Positions 2,493-11,539 of a DNA stretch of 11,539 nucleotides are shown here, piece after piece (the first letter of the stretch is position 1; the number at the start of each line of letters is the position of its first letter). This DNA comes from Armatimonadota bacterium (GTDB taxonomy: Bacteria; Armatimonadota; UBA5829; DTLH01). The notes under the pieces are model-generated. The model worked only from the letters and a program-made list of their open reading frames with translations. It ran no database searches and was not told where the DNA came from. The stretch spans positions 1 through 11,539 of the forward strand of contig JBBRAE010000056.1 of NCBI GenBank assembly GCA_038207085.1, written 5' to 3'. The translations under genes were made by a program, and so were the position numbers.

Positions 2493-2721
2493 TTACCCCC
2501 GCAGAAGCTCGACAAATTCTGTGACGGTGATCCCGGAGTCTCTTGCAATTCCACGCAGGGTTCCGGGGTCAAGTTCCTTGTGCAACGGAATAGACATGAT
2601 TGGCCTGTTTTCCCGCTTTGATGAGCACTACGTGACTTCCTCGCTGACGCGCCATAACCCAGCCTGCGCGCTCAAAGGCTTTGATCGCGTCGGCACCTGA
2701 AACCACCGGAAGTCTCGTCAT
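2493..2721 (-). pseudogene. hicA: HicA family toxin, frameshifted
   Basis: Translation gives MTRLPVVSGADAIKAFERAGWVMARQRGSHVVLIKAG. After one extra base in GGGAAAAC (2607-2614) it continues NRPIMSIPLHKELDPGTLRGIARDSGITVTEFVELLRG*. The GSH motif is present. The span is 229 nt (3n+1), and the start overlaps the hicB stop (ATGA). Confidence 0.85.
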
Positions 2722-2927
2722 ATCTGAACGGCTACGATCTCAGAGGCGCTCGGCAGTTCTCTCGTGCGCTTTTCCTGCTCGACTTCCAACCAGAGCGCGG
2801 CAGCTTCCTTCGCGTTTTCGACGGCTTCATCTCTGGTGTTGCCTTGTGACCAGCACCCTTTGAGCGCAGGAACCCGCGTCACGAAGTAACCGGCTTCCCC
2901 TCTTCTTACAACGATTTTTATTTCCAT
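2718..2927 (-). CDS. hicB: HicB family antitoxin (short, partial RNase H-like domain only)
   Basis: 69 aa from ATG at 2927 with a GGAG ribosome-binding site. Motif GYFVTRVPALKGCWSQGNTRDEAVENAKEA. Confidence 0.88.
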   Translation of the reverse strand: MEIKIVVRRGEAGYFVTRVPALKGCWSQGNTRDEAVENAKEAAALWLEVEQEKRTRELPSASEIVAVQI

Positions 2928-2954
2928 ACAGGTACTCCAATGACTATTAGTTAC

Positions 2955-2963
2955 ATGATACCA
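2955..2963 (-). promoter_or_regulatory. Putative extended -10 element (TGGTATCAT) for hicBA
   Basis: Matches TGnTAnnnT about 28 nt upstream of the hicB ATG. Confidence 0.4.
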
Positions 2964-2986
2964 CACGTGCGGGACTCACGACGCAC

Positions 2987-3301: not shown

Positions 3302-4128
3302 TGTTTCTGCCCCAAAACGGCCTTTTCGACCGATTTTGCCATTGCAAGAATGCCGGGAAGGTCGGACAGCGCTAGCATCGACGCTGCATCCGAGTGGGCC
3401 TTCTCAGGCTCGGGGTGGACTTCAAGGAATAGCGCGTCGATCCCAACCGCGACAGCCGCGCGGACGAGATGCGGGATGAACTCCCTCGCGCCGCCGGATG
3501 CGTTCCCCTGGCCGCCCGGACGCTGCACGCTGTGGGTTGCGTCAAAGATAACGGGGTAGCCAAAATCGCGCATAATGGGAAGCGAGCACATATCGACCAC
3601 GAGCGTGTTGTAGCCAAACGACACGCCGCGCTCGGTGAGCATCAGGTTCTCATTGCCGGTGCTCTCGATCTTGCCGACGACGTTTTTCATGTCCCAGGGA
3701 GCAAGAAACTGGCCCTTTTTCACATTGATCGGCTTGCCTGTCTCGGCGGCTGTGACGAGCAGATCGGTCTGTCGGCACAAGAAGGCCGGAATTTGCAAAA
3801 TATCTACAACCTCTGCGGCGGGCTCGACGTGGCAGCACTCGTGGACATCGGTCAACACGGGCACGCCGACTCGCTTTTTTACTTCGGCCAGGATTTCAAG
3901 CCCCCGCTCCATCCCAGGACCTCTTCTGCCTGAGACAGCGGTGCGGTTGGCCTTGTCAAACGAGGCCTTAAATATGTAAGGAATACCGATCCCTTCTGCG
4001 GTGTCACGCGCGACGGTCGCGATCTCAAGGCAAAGATCAAGCGACTCGATCACGCACGGCCCGGCGATCAGCACAAGCGGGAGGCTCCCGCCTATCTCAA
4101 CGTTTCCGACTTTGACGATTCTGGTCAT
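3298..4128 (-). CDS. kdsA: KDO-8-phosphate synthase (3-deoxy-8-phosphooctulonate synthase)
   Basis: Motifs [51 protein letters not shown] and FDATHSVQ. The Cys in GPC fits the metal-dependent class. ATG at 4128 has GGAG upstream; 4140 is an alternative start. Confidence 0.97.
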
Positions 4129-4157
4129 CTGATTCTCCATAACTGTTAATCCTGATG

Positions 4158-4166
4158 ATTATAGCA
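4158..4166 (-). promoter_or_regulatory. Extended -10 element (TGCTATAAT) for kdsA-acyP
   Basis: Perfect TGnTATAAT about 30 nt upstream of the ATG at 4128. Confidence 0.6.
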
Positions 4167-4173
4167 GAAATCG

Positions 4174-4198
4174 GGCAGGGTCGTCTCTGAAGCCTGCC
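4174..4198. repeat. Short GC hairpin, degenerate REP-like
   Basis: GGCAGG (4174-4179) pairs with CCTGCC (4193-4198) in the divergent intergenic region. Confidence 0.35.
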
Positions 4199-4237
4199 TA
4201 TTTGCGCCATTTTGGATTTCCCATATCACATCCTGCA

Positions 4238-4246
4238 TGTTATACT
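4238..4246 (+). promoter_or_regulatory. Putative extended -10 element (TGTTATACT) for cdaA-cdaR
   Basis: TGnTATACT overlaps the ORF-track start at 4237, which implies the real start lies downstream. Confidence 0.5.
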
Positions 4247-4317
4247 ATTCAGGAGAGTTTCTTATTAACGCTGGCCTGCCTTACCTATCGGCTGGTCACG
4301 GGTTTGCGGGAAGAGCA

Positions 4318-5187
4318 TTGAGATTTCTATCCGCGTGGTTGCAGGGGATGTTTGGTCCGGGGCAGTCCAGTTCGTTTGCGACCACTGTCGACATTATACT
4401 GGTATCCGTAGTCATCTACTGGGTTATCATGCTGGCCAAGCGCACCAGGGCGTCGTGGCACGTTATGTGGGGCCTGTTGATACTGGTCGTCACCGTGTCT
4501 GTGACCGAATGGCTGCACCTCTGGACCCTCAACTGGCTCCTTCAGACGCTTATCCCCCTCGGTCCGGTCGCTATCGTGATTTTGTTTTACCCTGAGCTGA
4601 GACACGCACTTGAGGACATCGGCCGCGTCGCCGGATGGGGCAGGAGCCTCACCAAAATGACCAACGAAGACGCCGGAAGCGTGATCAAGGAGATCGGCAC
4701 AGCCGCCGCGAGGATGTCGGCCAAGCAGGTCGGCGCGCTGATGGTGCTTGAGCGCGACGTGCAGCTCGACGATATAACCGCAAGCGGCACCGCGATCCAT
4801 GCGACCGTCTCAACCGAACTTCTTTGCACGATTTTTCACCCCGGAAGCGCTCTCCATGACGGAGCGGTGATCGTCCGCGGCAGCAGAATAGTGGCAGCCG
4901 GCTGCATTTTGCCCCTAAGCGACAGCGTTCACATCGGGACTATGATCCACACCCGCCACAAGGCGGCTATAGGAATGAGTGAAGTGAGCGACGCGGCTGT
5001 GGTCGTCGTAAGCGAAGAAACGGGGACGATCTCCCTTGCAATCGAGGGCAAACTCCACTCTGGCCTGAACGAAGAGACGCTTACCAAGTGGCTGAGAGGC
5101 ATATTCGGCGACGGCGATGACGATCAGAAATCCAACTTCAAGAAAACCGTGGATGACACGCTGCGGCGAGCGGGGCTGAGGTCGTAG
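4318..5187 (+). CDS. cdaA: Membrane diadenylate cyclase CdaA/DacA
   Basis: N-terminal hydrophobic helices, FYPELRHALE, GALMVLER, LHDGAVIV, HTRHKAAIGMSE and VVSEETGTIS. The start is uncertain (TTG 4318, ATG 4348, or the track start 4237). Confidence 0.95.
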   Translation: MRFLSAWLQGMFGPGQSSSFATTVDIILVSVVIYWVIMLAKRTRASWHVMWGLLILVVTVSVTEWLHLWTLNWLLQTLIPLGPVAIVILFYPELRHALEDIGRVAGWGRSLTKMTNEDAGSVIKEIGTAAARMSAKQVGALMVLERDVQLDDITASGTAIHATVSTELLCTIFHPGSALHDGAVIVRGSRIVAAGCILPLSDSVHIGTMIHTRHKAAIGMSEVSDAAVVVVSEETGTISLAIEGKLHSGLNEETLTKWLRGIFGDGDDDQKSNFKKTVDDTLRRAGLRS

Positions 5188-5190
5188 ACT

Positions 5191-6132
5191 ATGACGGGAA
5201 TACTGCTCAAAAACTGGCCCTACAAGATTTTTGCCGTGTTGATCGCCTTCACGATCTGGAGTCACGTCCAAAACGTGCGAAACCCCGTCACGGATGTCCC
5301 GGCCAAAGTGCCGGTCAAATATACCCATCTGCATAAGGGGTACGTGGCAAACGTCATCCCCGAAGAGATATTGGTGACGCTTCAGGGGCCAAAGCTTCAG
5401 GTCGACGAGATGAACATCAAAAAAGACATCATGGCGACAGTCGACCTCGCAAACCTTGACGTAGGCACACACCGGGTGCCGATAAAGATTGTTATCCCCG
5501 AAGAACGGCGCGACGGCGTCGCGGCGCTGTTTGACTCCAAGGACGTGGCGGTGACGATCGAGTCGGTCTCATCGCGCACGATCGGCATCGAGGTCAAGAT
5601 GAAAAGCCCGCCGCCGATCGGCTGGACGCTTAGCGACCCGACGATCCAGCCCAGCCGAGCTATCGTCTCAGGGAGAAGCAGCCTGGTCGACAGAGTCGCT
5701 CGCCTGGCCGTGACCACCGATGCGACACCGCTCAAGCCTTCGATCGACGACTACGTCCACATCAAAGCGCTTGACGCCCGGGGCAGGGAGATCGATGGGG
5801 TTAGGGTAGCGCCCGACGGCGCGCGTGTGGCGCTCAAGCTTGTTGAAGCCCCCGCAGGCAAATCGGTTTTTGTCAGCCCCACTGTTACCGGCCAGCCACA
5901 GTTCCCCTATCAGGTGACCAAGGTCAGCGTCACCCCCAACTCAGTGACGATCAAGGGGCGGCCTGAGAGCCTGGTGAACACGAGCACCCTCTCGACAGAC
6001 GAGGTCGATGTGACCGGCGCGACAGGCAACGTCGTCCGGCGCACAACGCTTCGAGTGCCCCCTGGGCTTGACATTGATGGGCCGCGCACGGTCAAGGTGA
6101 CGGTAAAGATCGAGTCCCTTCAGAACCGCTAG
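5191..6132 (+). CDS. cdaR: CdaR / YbbR-domain regulator of diadenylate cyclase
   Basis: N-terminal NWPYKIFAVLIAFTIW transmembrane anchor followed by about three beta-rich YbbR-like repeats (VTLQGP, AIVSGR, VTIKGR). It starts 3 nt after cdaA. Confidence 0.92.
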   Translation: MTGILLKNWPYKIFAVLIAFTIWSHVQNVRNPVTDVPAKVPVKYTHLHKGYVANVIPEEILVTLQGPKLQVDEMNIKKDIMATVDLANLDVGTHRVPIKIVIPEERRDGVAALFDSKDVAVTIESVSSRTIGIEVKMKSPPPIGWTLSDPTIQPSRAIVSGRSSLVDRVARLAVTTDATPLKPSIDDYVHIKALDARGREIDGVRVAPDGARVALKLVEAPAGKSVFVSPTVTGQPQFPYQVTKVSVTPNSVTIKGRPESLVNTSTLSTDEVDVTGATGNVVRRTTLRVPPGLDIDGPRTVKVTVKIESLQNR

Positions 6133-6138
6133 GATTTG

Positions 6139-6927
6139 TCATAGGGCAAGGGTGAGGCACTTTGCCGCCCCTCCCGCTTTCAGGAACTCGGAAAGCTCGG
6201 TCGTGACGCAGCTTAGGCCCCGGGCGGCAAGTGCGGCGCAGAGCCTTGGGGCACCCGTGTTCATCAAAACCCACTCGCCTATGACTACGGAGTTGCAGGC
6301 AAAGGTCGCCACTTCCTCGGGCGTAACCTCGATTGCGTCCGGGAACATACCACGGATCACTGTGAGCGAATACTGGTCAAACGCGCCGGGGTAATAGACA
6401 AGCGAGTCACCTACGGGCAAGAAACAGGTGTCGAGGTGATAAAACCGCTCATCGACTAGCCTGAGCGGCAGCACCTCCTCCCCGAGTATCTCCGAAACCG
6501 CCGCCAGAGCCGCGGGCGCGCTTCTATAGTAGTACGCGCCAAACCAGGTGTCCCCTGCGCGAAGAACGTCGCCCGCCCCTTCAAACTTGAGCGCGTCAGG
6601 AAGGGTCTCGACCACAAAACCGTGAGATGCAAACCAGCGCTCGAAGTGCTCCTCCTCGCCCTGGCGCTCCGGGTAACGGAAGCGCGAAGCGATAAACAGA
6701 TCACCCTTGATAAGCCCCGCGTTCGCAGTAAAAACCATATCCGGAAGCCCTGGCGCGGGGTTCACAAGCTCGATTTGGGTGTCGGGCATCTCCCCCAGCG
6801 TCTCATAGAGATTACCCCACTGAGCGGCTGCAAGCGCGTGATCGGCTGGGTGTTCGCGGCGCATCCAGGGGTTGATCTCGTACTCGATCCCGTAGTGGTC
6901 CGGCGGACACATCAGAAAGCGGCGCAT
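6139..6927 (-). CDS. Amidinotransferase-superfamily protein, arginine dihydrolase-like (ArgZ/AgrE N-terminal domain)
   Basis: Motifs FLMCPPDHY..INPWM, GLPDMVFTANAGL, FEGAGD, FYHLDTCF and EFLKAGGAAKCL, giving an intact Glu-His-Cys triad. A GGAGG ribosome-binding site lies inside the upstream gene. Confidence 0.88.
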   Translation of the reverse strand: MRRFLMCPPDHYGIEYEINPWMRREHPADHALAAAQWGNLYETLGEMPDTQIELVNPAPGLPDMVFTANAGLIKGDLFIASRFRYPERQGEEEHFERWFASHGFVVETLPDALKFEGAGDVLRAGDTWFGAYYYRSAPAALAAVSEILGEEVLPLRLVDERFYHLDTCFLPVGDSLVYYPGAFDQYSLTVIRGMFPDAIEVTPEEVATFACNSVVIGEWVLMNTGAPRLCAALAARGLSCVTTELSEFLKAGGAAKCLTLAL

Positions 6928-8147
6928 AGACCCTCCTCCCCAAGCATGCGGGCAAGTTCCTGCATGAAAAGCGCCGCGTCGGTTACGACACCTATCGCCT
7001 GGTGGGTGCCCCGGTCCGAGAGCTTGGTGACGACCGCGGGGTTGATGTCTACCGCGACGACCTCCACCTCCGCCGGGAGCATGTTCCCCGTCGCGACGGA
7101 GTGAAGCGTCGTCCCGACCATAAGCGCCAGCCCCACCCCGGGGATCTGCGCGCGCATCGCGTCCTGAGCCTCAAGCGTGTCGGTGATGACATCGGGGAGC
7201 GGGCCGTCGTCTCTGATCGAGCCCGCGAGCACGTAGGGGATGCCTGCGCGGACGCACTCGTACATTATGCCGCGGGTGATGATTCCACGGCGGACGGCCT
7301 CGGCGATGCTTCCGACGCCCCTCACCGTGTTCACCGCGCGCAGGTGATGTTCGTGGCCGTGCGCGGCGGGTTTGCCCTCTTTGACAGACACACCGAGCGA
7401 TGTCCCGTAGATCGCTGCCTCGATATCGTGGAGGGCAAGCGCGTTTCCTGCAAAGAGCAGGTCTATGCGGCCGCCCCGGATCATCCCCGCGACGGCTTCG
7501 GTCGAGCCCGCATGCACTACCGCCGGCCCGGCAACAAGGAGCACCCGTTTGCCTGCGCGCTTGGTTTCCGCGATCATCCGGGCGACAGCGGCAATCATCA
7601 CGGTCTTAGGCTTCTCGCTTGAAACGGCGCTTGCCATAAACTCAAAGACGCCCGCTTCCCGCGCCCGAGGCCTGGTCTCGACCCGAACACCTTCGTGGCC
7701 GACGACAACTGCGTCCCCGGCGCGCACGTGGTTCATCGGGGTCGTTACTGCGCGACCGTCAGCTACGACGATCCCGCAGTCCATCTCTATTCGCTCGACG
7801 GCGAGCCAACTGCCGTTGATACGAACGCGGGTAGGCAGGTTGGTCGTGCAGTAGAACCCGTCGGGGAAGACGCCATCGGCGGGCGCGGGCACAAACTGAG
7901 CGTCACCCTGATCCAGCCTGTTTGCCCCCTCGCGCTCGATATAGGCGAGCACCGATTCCAGAGTTGCCTGGTCGGGCGCACTCACTCTGATCTTCACAAC
8001 GCTCTGCTCGGCGCGCGTGCGGCCGATGGAGACGCTTTCAAACTCAAACTCCCCACCCTGCGCAAGGATCGCGTCAAGCACCCTCGGCAAGCTGAGTGAG
8101 TCGATGATATGGCCCTTTAGTTCAACTATCTCGGAAAACGCGTTCAT
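6912..8147 (-). CDS. TIGR00300 family protein (LOR/SDH-related; AgrE-type ornithine cyclodeaminase-like)
   Basis: Motifs ELKGHIIDSL, DGVFPDGFYCTTNLPT, EMDCGIV, FEFMASAVSSEKPK, GNALALHDIE, LAGSIRDDGPLP, LHSVATGNMLP and VDINPAVVTKLSDRG. Confidence 0.9.
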   Translation of the reverse strand: MNAFSEIVELKGHIIDSLSLPRVLDAILAQGGEFEFESVSIGRTRAEQSVVKIRVSAPDQATLESVLAYIEREGANRLDQGDAQFVPAPADGVFPDGFYCTTNLPTRVRINGSWLAVERIEMDCGIVVADGRAVTTPMNHVRAGDAVVVGHEGVRVETRPRAREAGVFEFMASAVSSEKPKTVMIAAVARMIAETKRAGKRVLLVAGPAVVHAGSTEAVAGMIRGGRIDLLFAGNALALHDIEAAIYGTSLGVSVKEGKPAAHGHEHHLRAVNTVRGVGSIAEAVRRGIITRGIMYECVRAGIPYVLAGSIRDDGPLPDVITDTLEAQDAMRAQIPGVGLALMVGTTLHSVATGNMLPAEVEVVAVDINPAVVTKLSDRGTHQAIGVVTDAALFMQELARMLGEEGLCAAF

Positions 8148-8153
8148 GTTTCT

Positions 8154-8234
8154 ACCCTAACCTGCATTATTCACGAGGAGCGTGAATAATGCTTTGCTAG
8201 CCCGCTTTATTTACTTCACGAATAAAGCGGGCTA
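8154..8234. repeat. Tandem pair of REP-like palindromes, family copies 2 and 3
   Basis: GCATTATTCACG-aggag-CGTGAATAATGC (8164-8192, 12-bp stem) and TAGCCCGCTTTATT-tacttcacg-AATAAAGCGGGCTA (8198-8234, 14-bp stem). Confidence 0.75.
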
Positions 8235-8590
8235 ACCATACATTACCCACTGTAGGGATCGTCCAACGTGTCGTCTTTCTATGCTCGTATGCAGCGGTGC
8301 GCCAAGCTAAGCTCACCTGATTCACCGGCCTGAGATTGGCCGGTCTGTATTTGCTCATTCGGCAGATAGCGCACGGTCCGTGGCGGCGGGTAACTTCTGT
8401 TATGGAGCGACCGATAGCGCGATTGTGCGGGTCATAGCGATAAGCGAACCCAATTCGGCCTCGTTAATACAAAGTGACAGTCGGCCGACCTCCCGCAGGT
8501 GGTGAAGTCTGTAACCATTCTGGTAGCACAGAGTGGGCTGTCCGGGGTGCAAGGGGATGACACGTGCATCGGGGTCAGGTGGGAACTTGG

Positions 8591-8654
8591 GTATGCGGCG
8601 GAAACGCCGGTTTCGTCCAATGATGGAATTACAGACAAGACAAGTTCCCGCAGC
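8591..8654. repeat. 60-bp inverted-repeat site, copy B (degenerate left arm)
   Basis: gtat-GCGGCGGAAAC (8595-8605), then 38 nt, then GTTCCCGCAGC (8644-8654). Confidence 0.65.
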
Positions 8655-8733
8655 CTAGAAGAACAAAAGGCTCAGTCCCCTTATTTCCTAGAAATCATCG
8701 AAACTACACCAGTTGAGCACGAATTCCACGCGT

Positions 8734-8886: not shown

Positions 8887-9627
8887 CTATAGAGCAGCAC
8901 GCACAAGACCCGCGACGCACTCAAGATCGAGTAGGTCTGCTGCGAGTGCGTTAATCAATATTCTGTTGTAATATGGAGGTTCGTTGCAGTCGATGCTGTA
9001 CCAACCTACAGGCGTTACGTCATTGGGCAGCGCTTCACCGTAGTTGAACAACTGAACGAGGGTTGGCGCACCGTGTATCGAGGCGGCATGCAATGGCAGG
9101 TTTACCGAATCACGATCTTGTTTGTAGCTAAAGGGGTCAATCAACATATACACCACTGGATTGGCCGCTTTGCTCAGAGCCTCCGAGAATGACGACTGAC
9201 TAAACTTGTCCGAAAAGACCACCTCGGCATCTCCACCTTGGAATGTTGCGCCGAACGAACTGCGAAGTCGTTCCAAGTAAACGGGGAGTAATTCAGAAAC
9301 AAGAAGACTGGACCTCGGGAAGCCTTTGGAAAGCGCAGCAGCAATGCCCGGAGAGCATAAGTATTCGCCTTTATCCAAATAGGGCTGCTCGAACTGAAAG
9401 TAAAGGTCGCTTTCGCTTCTGGGCCTTATGGTCTGTGCCCTACCGTTGGGAAGCACAGCGTCGAACGCATAAGCATGCGTGTCCACGTACACCAGTTGCG
9501 CATCAGGGAGCTTTGAAGCCAGCAAGTAGAGCAGATCAACCAGCACCCGGTGCTTGATAACGTCCCCTCGGTTGCCCACATTGCCGTCTTGTTTGTTAGT
9601 TGTCATATTCGCGGCCAACTCTCTCAT
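8887..9627 (-). CDS. Divergent RlmJ-fold SAM-dependent methyltransferase-like protein
   Basis: GNRGDVIKHRVL (RlmJ GNxADVxKH), YVDTHAY (YxDTHAG), YLCSP (YPGSP), SELLP (ELHP) and LIDPFSY (LIDPPY) occur in the RlmJ order. The start overlaps the upstream stop (ATGA). Confidence 0.72.
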   Translation of the reverse strand: MRELAANMTTNKQDGNVGNRGDVIKHRVLVDLLYLLASKLPDAQLVYVDTHAYAFDAVLPNGRAQTIRPRSESDLYFQFEQPYLDKGEYLCSPGIAAALSKGFPRSSLLVSELLPVYLERLRSSFGATFQGGDAEVVFSDKFSQSSFSEALSKAANPVVYMLIDPFSYKQDRDSVNLPLHAASIHGAPTLVQLFNYGEALPNDVTPVGWYSIDCNEPPYYNRILINALAADLLDLECVAGLVRAAL

Positions 9628-10571
9628 CGCTCGCCAGGGCCAACATCAATGGCAGTGTTGCGATGGTATTCATCGCGCGCTCGATTAAGTGAGCCAAGCA
9701 CCCCGTTACGAACTTGCCGTAGTCCATCCGAGCCGAAGCCAACCGACGCTACGAACACTGCAGAGTTGTTCGCCCTGAACATACACCAAGTATAGTCGGT
9801 AGCCGGCCCGAGATCGAAACTTGCGGCGTACTCCTGCGCGTATCTTTCTGCTCTTGCCGGAAAGCGGTCTCTGTCTTGTTCGTTCGTAAACATGATAAAG
9901 AACGTCGGCACACTGTCCGGCAGCTGAGCGCGCAGGAATTCCAGATCGAACCGGTTCATGCGGTTATCGTGGTCGGCCTGCGGAACGTCGTCATCCAGTG
10001 CGTAGCTCATAGGGTCGCAGTATAGTATGCGCGCTGCCGGCTGCACATTCGCATTCGCAATGCCAGCCCTCGCCTGCTCCCAGAGTGCTGGGGCCCGAAA
10101 CGTGCCACGTCCGAGGCTCCCTTGGACATGATCTGGTGTCAGCCCTTGCCCGGGAATGACCCCAGGATCATGCAGGAAATCCTCGATCTCCGGCCACTTC
10201 ATTTCCTTGATTTCAAAGAGGGACGCCCAAACACGTCGTCCGCTGTCCCGAGCAGCCCTCGCTGCGAAAACTACGTGGCTTGGATAGAGGCATCTGTTTG
10301 CTGATCTGGAATCCTGTACGACTCTGAAGAACGGGCTGAGTCCAACCAATTGTTTGGGGATATCGTTCCTCCACAAGTCGCGGAACAGCCCTTCTTCTCT
10401 AAACGGTACGTTGAGCGGATTCATCGCGTGCGTATCCACGTAGTGAATCCACGAGGGCGAATCCACAGTATTGCAGACGTAGCGCATCGCCTCTGTCAAG
10501 ACAAGATGCTCTAGTGTTGTTCCAACATTTCCTCGTACAGCGCCTGGCACTCTTCCGCCTCCCTTCATCAA
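9624..10571 (-). CDS. Second, more divergent RlmJ-fold methyltransferase-like protein
   Basis: GNVGTTLEHLVL, YVDTHAM, LYPSH, LFEI and YCDPMSY are collinear with the neighbour's motifs. The start is TTG 10571 or ATG 10568. Confidence 0.6.
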   Translation of the reverse strand: MMKGGGRVPGAVRGNVGTTLEHLVLTEAMRYVCNTVDSPSWIHYVDTHAMNPLNVPFREEGLFRDLWRNDIPKQLVGLSPFFRVVQDSRSANRCLYPSHVVFAARAARDSGRRVWASLFEIKEMKWPEIEDFLHDPGVIPGQGLTPDHVQGSLGRGTFRAPALWEQARAGIANANVQPAARILYCDPMSYALDDDVPQADHDNRMNRFDLEFLRAQLPDSVPTFFIMFTNEQDRDRFPARAERYAQEYAASFDLGPATDYTWCMFRANNSAVFVASVGFGSDGLRQVRNGVLGSLNRARDEYHRNTAIDVGPGER

Positions 10572-10578
10572 TCGACTC

Positions 10579-11292
10579 TCAAGACATTATGCTATTAGAG
10601 AGTTTTCTCACATGCATTGTAGGGCCAACCATAACGGCTTCATTCGAGGAGATCGCGACCGTGATTCTTCCGGACAGCAACCCCGCCTGGTAGGATGGCC
10701 GGTAAGTTAGGATTTTCTCCGTCTGTGTCTCAGGTATATAGCCGATCTGCGCCATCATCATGGTTAGTCGGTCTCGAAACTGTGCGGGATCACTTACCGG
10801 AATCCGTCGCATCTCGCCTTTGAGGAAGAATGCCATTGTGAAGCCGAACAAAACACCAAAGCCCAGACCGCCCCATATACCGACAGATAGGACATTACCG
10901 AAGCTCATCCCGTTCATCTGTGCAAATAGCCAAGACCATAGTAATGCAAATGGAAGAGAGGTGACTCCAGCGATCATCGAAAACGTTCCCCAGAAACTGC
11001 GCGGCTGAAGCCCCGACATCAGGTCGGCATCGTGCTGCAACGTGCCCCGTTGGCCGCCAGTCTGTTGGCGCACTTCGCGGGAATGATCCGACTGCAACTC
11101 CCGCCCGCACGATGCGCAGAAATTGGCCTCACAAGGCAGACTCTTTCCACAATGAGAGCAGTGGCCGCCATATTGCGTGGGCAAACGTGGTTGGACTGAT
11201 TGCTCTGGCTGGGCAACGAAGGGGTGACTACAGCTATAGCACTCGCTTATGTTCGCCGGATTTGGTGCCCCACATTTTTCGCACTTCCTCAT
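10579..11292 (-). CDS. Double zinc-ribbon membrane protein
   Basis: Four CxxC motifs (CEKC, CYSC, CSHC, CASC), Q/P-rich linkers, two hydrophobic helices and a soluble C-terminal domain. ATG at 11292 has GGAG upstream (track start 11310). Confidence 0.8.
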   Translation of the reverse strand: MRKCEKCGAPNPANISECYSCSHPFVAQPEQSVQPRLPTQYGGHCSHCGKSLPCEANFCASCGRELQSDHSREVRQQTGGQRGTLQHDADLMSGLQPRSFWGTFSMIAGVTSLPFALLWSWLFAQMNGMSFGNVLSVGIWGGLGFGVLFGFTMAFFLKGEMRRIPVSDPAQFRDRLTMMMAQIGYIPETQTEKILTYRPSYQAGLLSGRITVAISSNEAVMVGPTMHVRKLSNSIMS

Positions 11293-11329
11293 CCCTATGT
11301 CTCCATACACATCCGCATTCTCGCTTCGG

Positions 11330-11427
11330 TGCTAACGCCCGCGCAATCAGGCAGGAGTGATAGACTGATTTAGCGAACATCACAAATCGTCATTATGAAA
11401 ATAAAGGGACTGAGCCCTTTGTTAAGC
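11330..11427 (-). other. Degenerate attC-like site
   Basis: The minus strand reads GCTTAAC-aaagg-GCTCAG ... CTGATTGC-gcgggc-GTTAGCA. This gives RYYYAAC and GTT ends with 5-nt and 6-nt spacers over 98 bp. L-box pairing is imperfect. Confidence 0.35.
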
Positions 11428-11432
11428 CTTTC

Positions 11433-11496
11433 GTATGCTGCGGGAACGTTTCCATTAGCCTTGACTATGGGCCTATTACCATGAAGTTCCCGCAGC
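11433..11496. repeat. 60-bp inverted-repeat site, copy A (perfect 11-bp arms)
   Basis: gtat-GCTGCGGGAAC (11437-11447), then 38 nt, then GTTCCCGCAGC (11486-11496). Confidence 0.75.
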
Positions 11497-11505
11497 GGTG
11501 GTAAC

Positions 11506-11530
11506 GGCTGGCACGGCGGCCCGCCACTAC
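11506..11530 (-). repeat. GTAG-type REP-like element
   Basis: The minus strand reads GTAG-T-GGCGGGC-cgccgt-GCCAGCC: a GTAG tetranucleotide followed by an imperfect GC hairpin. Confidence 0.55.
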
Positions 11531-11539
11531 ATTTAGCTG

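Follow-up and report, generated by a model that had tools for sequence, protein, structure and literature searches.

Analysis of an 11,539-bp window of DNA, which is the whole of contig JBBRAE010000056.1 (C56) from a 3.35-Mb, 100% complete Armatimonadota genome (assembly GCA_038207085.1; G000), revealed a rare accessory operon whose last two genes, P0002 and P0001, probably represent two previously unnamed lineages of the RlmJ superfamily for which no profile models exist, one catalytic and the other degenerate. We tentatively propose that P0001 is an accessory nucleic-acid methyltransferase with P0002 as its degenerate partner, and that the three-gene operon, which begins with the gene of a zinc-ribbon membrane protein (P0003), was acquired horizontally; its last two genes would encode very different class I methyltransferases dependent on S-adenosylmethionine (SAM). 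The features of the operon are as follows:

10579..11310, minus strand: P0003, the operon's first gene, with zinc ribbons and membrane helices
9624..10571, minus strand: P0002, 315 amino acids from a TTG, predicted RlmJ fold, very rare lineage (alignment A3)
8887..9627, minus strand: P0001, 246 amino acids, predicted RlmJ fold, member of an unmodelled family (alignment A4)
9624..9627, minus strand: ATGA overlap of the P0002 stop and the first ATG of P0001, read from the sequence
10558..10565, minus strand: Shine-Dalgarno-like AAGGGAGG, 7 nt 5′ of the GTG at 10550 (P0002), read from the sequence

The genes are arranged compactly on the minus strand in the order P0003, P0002 and P0001. The preliminary description of this DNA, made from the letters alone, had reported two open reading frames (ORFs) that overlap by ATGA and share collinear motifs, and both features are indeed present. 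The P0002 stop TGA (9626-9624) overlaps the P0001 ATG (9627-9625), although a second ATG of P0001 at 9606, from which the N-terminus would have the length seen in homologues, means that the two genes share 4 nt or else are separated by 17 nt. Judged on the letters, P0002 and P0001 are tightly linked whichever P0001 start holds, and a coupling of their translation is putative. As for P0002, its start is most likely the GTG at 10550, 7 nt past AAGGGAGG, which gives the 308-amino-acid form held in the protein database (P0006) and leaves a 28-nt gap, containing the Shine-Dalgarno, after the P0003 stop. The shared motifs comprise GN.G...[K/E]H.VL, YVDTHA followed by Y in P0001 or M in P0002, YLCS (P0001) or YPSH (P0002), SE or FE after a strand, and DPFSY or DPMSY, the P0002 set reading in full GN.GT.LEH, YVDTHAM, YPSH, FE and DPMSY. 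Note that, in the BLASTP alignment, the equivalents of the RlmJ G-N are G18-N19 of P0001 and not the ‘GNVG’ at positions 15-18.

The RlmJ-like fold that had been assigned to both proteins was recovered by structure searches (Foldseek included), in which RlmJ was the best Protein Data Bank (PDB) match of each model. AlphaFold models, predicted from shallow alignments of 3 rows (P0001) and 5 rows (P0002), reached a predicted local distance difference test (pLDDT) of 80.4 and a predicted template modelling (pTM) score of 0.83 for P0001, and 81.1 and 0.87, respectively, for P0002. The P0001 model superposed on RlmJ chain 6qdx_A over 214 residues (Z 20.0, root-mean-square deviation 2.9 Å), with the next non-RlmJ chain at Z 13.1, and the P0002 model on RlmJ chain 4blw_B over 250 of 279 residues (Z 17.8, 3.6 Å), with the next non-RlmJ chain at Z 12.3. 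The ten top PDB chains, the same set for both models, are all RlmJ or its Legionella homologue, and Foldseek matched RlmJ at E 1.7e-8 for P0001 and E 4.2e-7 for P0002. Both models display the RlmJ-type Rossmann-like fold with an N-terminal motif X and an inserted helical subdomain, at 5-7 Z above other methyltransferases. At the sequence level, single-sequence searches of the PDB returned nothing significant for either protein (P0001 to RlmJ only E 0.16); a profile of P0001 with 2 homologues matched RlmJ chains over positions 9-167 (E 1.3e-5), the 56-sequence profile of the P0001 family matched RlmJ at E 6e-10, and P0002-family profiles found no sequence relatives in the PDB. In the ESM Atlas, P0002 retrieved unnamed clusters together with low-scoring clusters labelled RlmJ. 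Since the best matches of the predicted structures are RlmJ and the P0001 profiles agree, the RlmJ-fold reading is supported for both proteins.

When compared with RlmJ (YhiR; PF04378; PDB 4blu/4blv/4blw, 6qdx and 7p8q, with 2oo3 for the Legionella homologue), the two proteins share the near-whole-chain fold, including the inserted helical part, and the likeness extends to motif X (GN..D..KH in P0001), the DTH of motif I, the Ser of Y..S, the Glu of motif II and the Asp of motif IV. They differ from RlmJ in matching no Pfam model, in reading DPF(S)Y or DPM(S)Y at motif IV, in the replacement of the Gly after DTHA, in a tail that is N-x-Q (P0001) or missing (P0002), and in the Glu found in place of K18 in P0002; moreover, their genes are sporadic and accessory and not housekeeping. 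The substitutions to which the preliminary description had drawn attention (Tyr or Met after DTHA, DPFSY and DPMSY) are real and conserved in homologues.

According to excerpts of the RlmJ structural study (PMC3814359), the cofactor contacts of RlmJ are H42, L119, F145, D143/G144, E118, S100, D164 and H19, and catalysis requires Y4, H6, K18 and D164, the K18A and D164A variants being inactive and K18R 10-fold down; the same excerpts describe D15 as positioning K18, and the N-terminal tail as closing over the cofactor and supplying Y4 and H6. The equivalent residues, mapped from profile and structure alignments with P0002 in the 308-amino-acid numbering, are the following:

RlmJ N12: P0001 N19; P0002 N8
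RlmJ D15: P0001 D22; P0002 T11
RlmJ K18: P0001 K25; P0002 E14
RlmJ H19: P0001 H26; P0002 H15
RlmJ H42: P0001 H51; P0002 H41
RlmJ S100: P0001 S92; P0002 H92
RlmJ E118: P0001 E112; P0002 E113
RlmJ D164: P0001 D164; P0002 D179
RlmJ W195: P0001 putatively F194, from equal spacing to D164; P0002 not mapped
RlmJ Y4 and H6 of the tail: P0001 putatively N11 and Q13, from a constant offset of 7; P0002 no tail

Within the P0001 family, N19, D22, K25, H26, S92, E112 and D164 are invariant in 69 aligned members and H51 is kept in 86%, and within the 5-member P0002 family all mapped residues except N8 are invariant (T11, E14, H15, H41, H92, E113 and D179). From the RlmJ tetrad Y4/H6/K18/D164, P0001 has K25 and D164 and P0002 only D179. 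In place of the motif IV form DPP[YF], P0001 has DPFSY and P0002 DPMSY, DPF being present in 90% of the 69 P0001-family members. As judged from these residues, P0001 would be the likely enzyme, keeping the SAM-holding side chains of RlmJ together with the catalytic Lys and Asp, and its Asn-x-Gln for the Tyr-x-His substrate tail and DPF for DPPY would point to a different substrate pocket. Because the tail and motif IV are altered and the Lys and Asp are kept, P0001 probably methylates the exocyclic nitrogen of a nucleic-acid base and not A2030 of 23S rRNA. P0002 appears to keep the fold and most residues of the cofactor pocket, with Lys changed to Glu, Asp to Thr and the N-terminal tail lost; most likely, it would attach to P0001 as a partner without catalysis of its own, perhaps binding SAM or the substrate as well. 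Heterodimers such as METTL3-METTL14 likewise join a catalytic methyltransferase to a homologous pseudo-enzyme whose catalytic motifs have degenerated; the likeness to P0001 and P0002 concerns only how the pair would work. Different methyltransferase clades are involved, and P0001 relatives occur without a partner.

P0001 belongs to an unnamed family that was delimited by searching 1.84 billion representatives exhaustively with HMMER; 133 clusters were recovered at E ≤ 1e-3, of which 64 reached E ≤ 1e-10, and most members are 240-250 amino acids long, a length of which P0001 is typical. It matches the family profile (A4) over positions 2-229 of 245 with 163.7 bits (E 2.3e-51) and possesses every invariant residue, and P0002 falls outside the family, with 13.8 bits over 36 residues of the N-terminal motif only. 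The signature of the family reads NxQxxNVGNxGDxxKH, DTHA[FY], YxCSxG, E, DPF and W, and the invariant or near-invariant positions in the 69 members are N11, Q13, N16, G18, N19, G21, D22, K25, H26, Y76, Y89, C91, S92, G94, E112, D164, P165, F166, F194 and W209. With its three closest relatives (P0004, P0005 and P0013; 42-45% identity), P0001 forms a distinct subgroup (KHR.LVD, DPF.Y), and unlike P0001, the other family members examined are solitary or fused and not paired. None of 56 family members matches any Pfam model (E ≤ 0.01), and among NCBIfam models one of the 56 matches TcmP (E 4.9e-4), the three-Cys-motif partner protein. TcmP is remotely related within this RlmJ-like superfamily, and its model (TIGR04474) is matched by neither P0001 nor P0002 even at E ≤ 10. 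In viral contigs, the wider family gave one weak match.

P0002 represents a very rare lineage, for which 5 clusters were found; searches of 5.8 billion proteins yielded four relatives, with identities of 43-60% for three of them and 34% for the fourth. Scans with P0002-family patterns yielded 11 candidate stretches in 185,579 species-representative genomes, 63 in JGI metagenome contigs and 21 in viral contigs, none of which was confirmed. Among 401 genomes of the phylum, the P0001 type occurs in 2 and the P0002 type in 1, in addition to one partial match of 22 bits. This genome has no PF04378 (RsmJ) gene, and P0001 and P0002 do not match that model even at E ≤ 10; indeed, 0 of 201 phylum genomes reach its cut-off (27 bits), two of them having weak partial matches, so the lineage does not appear to use RlmJ. 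Searches of Pfam, NCBIfam and PADLOC found nothing significant for P0001 or P0002, and in PADLOC-DB 2.0 (library of 2023) no model was matched by P0001, P0002 or P0003 at E ≤ 0.01. Likewise, tblastn gave no match in 72,556 plasmid records (P0001, P0006 and one family member as queries) or, for P0001, in 50,697 phage records, and no published description of either family was found, judged by titles and abstracts. The preliminary description, which held the pair to be repurposed, outside ordinary RlmJ and not recognisable as a named system, agrees with this sporadic distribution and the missing model matches. The accessory status of the operon is also visible in its surroundings, where GC falls from 0.60-0.67 to 0.50-0.56 from about position 8,000 onward, and the cassette is absent from 3 genomes of the same family, which share with the window only the DDAH-like/ArgZ-like gene pair (6139-8147, minus strand), the ArgZ-like gene being of arginine dihydrolase type.

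The relation between P0001 and P0002 is a distant one. BLASTP aligns only their N-terminal 36 residues (33% identity, E 0.001), and profile-profile comparison of the small P0001 alignment with the P0002 alignment gives a probability of 83-89%. With the 56-sequence profile of the wider P0001 family, the alignment to the P0002 family covers 179 columns (92.7%, E 4.4e-7), from motif X to beyond the DPF/DPM strand, and these profile-profile comparisons of the two families lie at 83-93% probability (E 9e-6 to 4.4e-7). Their likeness thus exceeds chance. It had been supposed that the two genes are a simple diverged tandem pair, and here the data point elsewhere: the P0002 family matches the P0001 family at 93.2% (E 3.1e-7) and 12 other RlmJ-like ORFs at 96.3% (E 1.9e-9), the latter being a heterogeneous set picked by two motif patterns from 25 ORFs, 13 of which were dropped. 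Because the P0002 family is no nearer to the P0001 family than to these other RlmJ-like ORFs, P0001 and P0002 are not a recent tandem duplicate, and an origin of the two genes by tandem duplication is unsupported.

As to whether the two proteins work together, the preliminary description had suggested a heterodimer with a catalytic and a scaffold subunit. The residue losses of P0002 fit this proposal, and the complex prediction lends it weak support: with both alignments, the interface score ipSAE was 0.47, 0.44 and 0.40 (median 0.44), compared with 0.00 in each of the three controls, the pLDDT of the partner did not fall below 89, and the runs had 90% or more of their contacts in common. Moreover, P0013 (P0001-like) and P0008 (P0002-like), both from Logan assemblies, have a longest contig of 3686 bp, and this equal length, the sole link between them, suggests a second instance of the pair. 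A P0001-P0002 heterodimer would be a candidate arrangement that the models favour weakly.

Several observations weigh against an active P0001 that acts with an inactive P0002. The Gly after DTHA is replaced by Tyr or Phe in the P0001 family and by Met in the P0002 family, and motif IV has no second Pro; these changes could alter SAM binding or methyl transfer. The Glu of P0002 is no proof of inactivity, since M.TaqI has a Thr at the contact equivalent to K18 of RlmJ (excerpts of PMC3814359). The ipSAE band of the predicted complex contains just 18 of 157 solved complexes, together with each of the 2 passing mismatched pairs, and it is rated more often wrong than right unless the complex is likely beforehand. 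In addition, on the 7.7-kb contig that carries P0005 (genome G031), no reading frame encodes anything like P0002 or P0003, the 26.4-kb contig of P0004 differs in length from every contig that carries a P0002 homologue, and among 80 metagenomic loci from the wider family, 0 have a second RlmJ-like or P0002-like ORF, 79 ORFs matching the hidden Markov model of the P0001 family, one per locus. The expectation that homologues generally co-occur as pairs failed on these loci and on the solitary close homologue, and because pairing is not conserved, P0001-type proteins evidently work alone elsewhere.

These last results bear directly on the most serious alternative, in which P0001 and P0002 would be two independent, stand-alone SAM-dependent methyltransferases with their own targets, co-regulated only and forming no complex. 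RlmJ itself was solved as a single protein (excerpts of PMC3814359), the P0001 type is solitary in G031 and in each of the 80 family loci, the positions of H19, H42, E118 and D164 are unchanged in P0002, and the M.TaqI case illustrates a working enzyme with a motif-X residue other than Lys. On the other side, P0002 is without the N-terminal tail and its Glu faces the catalytic Asp, a lineage of 5 clusters would be oddly rare for an autonomous enzyme, and the complex prediction stands above its controls. We consider this alternative rather doubtful, and an accessory enzyme P0001 with a degenerate partner P0002 remains our preferred explanation.

The domain composition of the P0001 family and its gene neighbours inform the question of substrate. 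In a fusion scan of 31 relatives, six proteins of 1160-1405 amino acids (P0032, P0079, P0081, P0088, P0114 and P0142) combine an RlmJ-like N-terminus with a C-terminal UvrD helicase that matches GajB-type models, and their middle region matches PADLOC PDC-S44 in P0081 and P0088 and Pfam DUF429 in P0088; the architecture resembles a fused modification-nuclease-helicase enzyme. Two further relatives carry DUF4145, which matches PDC-M16A and models of the type I restriction N-terminus, one carries an MNT-type nucleotidyltransferase (PDC-S09) and one (P0058) a zinc ribbon. A C-terminal region of about 110 amino acids with conserved QRATYGA.GG...NSW.VSA.TG.PT is shared by P0050, P0091 and P0096; it has no Pfam match at 1e-3 and presumably resembles the DNA-binding domain of alkyltransferase-like proteins. 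Neighbours were scanned in the best-scoring 41 family loci (139 proteins) and include HEPN_Swt1 (L014), GmrSD_N with AAA_21 (L019), DUF433/DUF5615 toxin-antitoxin pairs (L025 and G031), an SF1 helicase (L050), Uma2 (L076), TraU/TraN/TraF (L021) and a transposase (L053), and many others are ordinary metabolic genes (msrA, acyl-CoA dehydrogenases, CysRS). As judged from the sequences, fusions and neighbours point to a nucleic-acid substrate, with conflict or mobile contexts for part of the P0001 family. A DUF488 gene lies directly upstream of the family gene, overlapping it or a few bases off, in L007 (341-880), L009 (7397-7984), L010 (1788-2327) and L011 (7445-7993), which makes DUF488 a possible functional partner of that subgroup; the DUF488 protein is identical in L007 and L010, and all four loci may stem from related organisms. 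Downstream of the solitary P0001 homologue in L005 (G031:C87), there is a 378-amino-acid ORF (5546-6682) with no Pfam family, which contains RNRVAH, a sequence that we take to fit the Rx4H motif of HEPN proteins, and this ORF is followed, at 7053-7717, by a DUF433 gene overlapped by an ORF with a DUF5615 domain.

The idea of a nucleic-acid-modifying defence module, which the preliminary description had raised, draws on these other family members and not on this locus. In this reading, the operon would be an anti-phage or conflict module of three components, with the methyltransferase-like proteins marking self nucleic acid or else detecting a cue from phage (modified DNA or depleted SAM) and P0003 acting as effector or anchor. 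It is consistent with the fusions to GajB-type UvrD, to the PDC-S44/DUF429-like nuclease domain (two proteins), to DUF4145 and to the MNT nucleotidyltransferase, with the helicase, toxin-antitoxin, HEPN, GmrSD, Uma2 and conjugation genes seen elsewhere, with the zinc ribbon of P0058, and with a cassette that is low in GC, repeat-flanked and absent from relatives. Against it, PADLOC models match none of the three proteins, the operon contains no nuclease or NTPase, neither the window nor contig C49 (see below) has defence genes next to it, many family members are surrounded by housekeeping genes (msrA, acyl-CoA dehydrogenase and tRNA synthetase, for example), and phage and plasmid records gave no match. 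As an explanation of this operon, a defence module is unlikely. More speculative still, and less probable, would be a three-part conflict system in which P0001, gated or guided by P0002, marks or senses nucleic acid (or SAM) and is coupled to the zinc-ribbon membrane protein, the P0001 family being an undescribed defence modification module whose active site departs from DPPY and whose target base may be new.

The two remaining alternatives fare poorly. That the genes are decaying or non-functional remnants of acquired DNA would agree with their great rarity, atypical GC and altered canonical motifs, but it is highly improbable given intact frames, homologues that keep the motifs at 40-60% identity, confident models and a strong ribosome-binding site for P0002. 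Finally, although RlmJ is the best structural and sequence match and the genome has no canonical PF04378 gene, it is scarcely credible that either gene is an ordinary housekeeping RlmJ, that is, a divergent m6A2030 orthologue, when 0 of 201 phylum genomes reach the PF04378 cut-off and the P0001 type occurs in 2 of 401, the essential Y4 and H6 are replaced by Asn and Gln or missing, DPPY is not kept, and 0 of 56 family members match any Pfam model.

The first protein of the operon, P0003, has two CxxC...CxxC zinc ribbons at residues 10-27 and 51-68 (Zn_Ribbon_1, E 1.6e-6; DZR, E 7e-6), followed by two membrane helices predicted from hydropathy at about 112-163 and by a C-terminal domain of about 80 amino acids without known family, for which the ESM Atlas returned unnamed clusters only. 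Its likelier start is the ATG at 11292, 8 nt after GGAG. Any part that P0003 plays beside the two RlmJ-like proteins would be conjectural.

The operon is flanked on both sides by the same composite repeat:

8639..8686, no strand: left flank, GTTCCCGCAGC module with a palindromic hairpin (8662-8686), inverted relative to the right flank
11399..11452, no strand: right flank, the same composite repeat, from repeat comparison

Inverted-repeat matches between the flanks cover 25 nt at 92% and 19 nt at 84%. The hairpin (core AAGGGCTCAGTCCCTT with a T-rich tail) has 24 copies in the genome, often near contig ends and often in inverted orientation to a second copy, with about 93 bp between the two. 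The GTTCCCGCAGC module is widespread, with far more copies than the hairpin, and often forms inverted pairs about 39 nt apart. The flanking inverted repeats had been considered as transposon ends, and this was dropped in view of the 24 hairpin copies and the many more copies of the second module. Because of these genome-wide copies, we read the repeats as general interspersed or terminator-like elements and claim no mobility for the cassette. The contigs of two DNA runs gave no reliable junction from which the cassette is missing, the sole one (10598 to 11397) having a 28-letter side and a depth of 4. No RNA run was among the public runs listed as containing this DNA.

The last 141 nt of the window (11399-11539) recur without a mismatch as positions 1-141 of contig C49, into which the genome therefore probably continues. 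There, a 354-amino-acid ORF upstream of the operon is followed by genes for a G5/LysM protein, a phosphoglucosamine-mutase (glmM)-like protein (3902-5254, minus strand) and ArgRS. The 354-amino-acid ORF was rejected as an operon member, as it ends before the hairpin; it has a signal peptide and no Pfam family. The glmM-like gene is separate from cdaA-ybbR, which lies at 4237-6132 of the window. Housekeeping genes identified with Pfam fill most of the window, namely DUF711, an ACT-domain protein, an acylphosphatase, a DAHP/KDO8P-synthase family gene, cdaA with ybbR, and the DDAH-like and ArgZ-like genes. Amid these genes, there is an ORF for a HicB-like antitoxin at 2718-2966 (minus strand; PF15919, E 7e-10). 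In the best DNA run, positions 8064-8367 of the window have a contig depth of about 2181 and 771, compared with 10-17 around them, with many loose ends at 8156/8157 and a 30-nt inverted repeat at 8182-8250; this segment is probably a repeat common to many genomes or contigs of that sample.

Altogether, RlmJ has hitherto been treated as a single housekeeping rRNA enzyme, and two unannotated branches of its superfamily are now delimited. The first, of about 130 clusters, has an intact cofactor pocket, an altered tail and motif IV, and repeated fusions of helicase or nuclease type; the second is very rare, appears catalytically degenerate from its residues, and adjoins a member of the first. For genome annotation, genes of the P0001 and P0002 types should not carry the RlmJ label. 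If the complex is true, it would represent a bacterial methyltransferase regulated by a pseudo-enzyme paralogue, and if conflict systems use the family to modify DNA or RNA, there would be a new modification chemistry or target to seek in methylome data.

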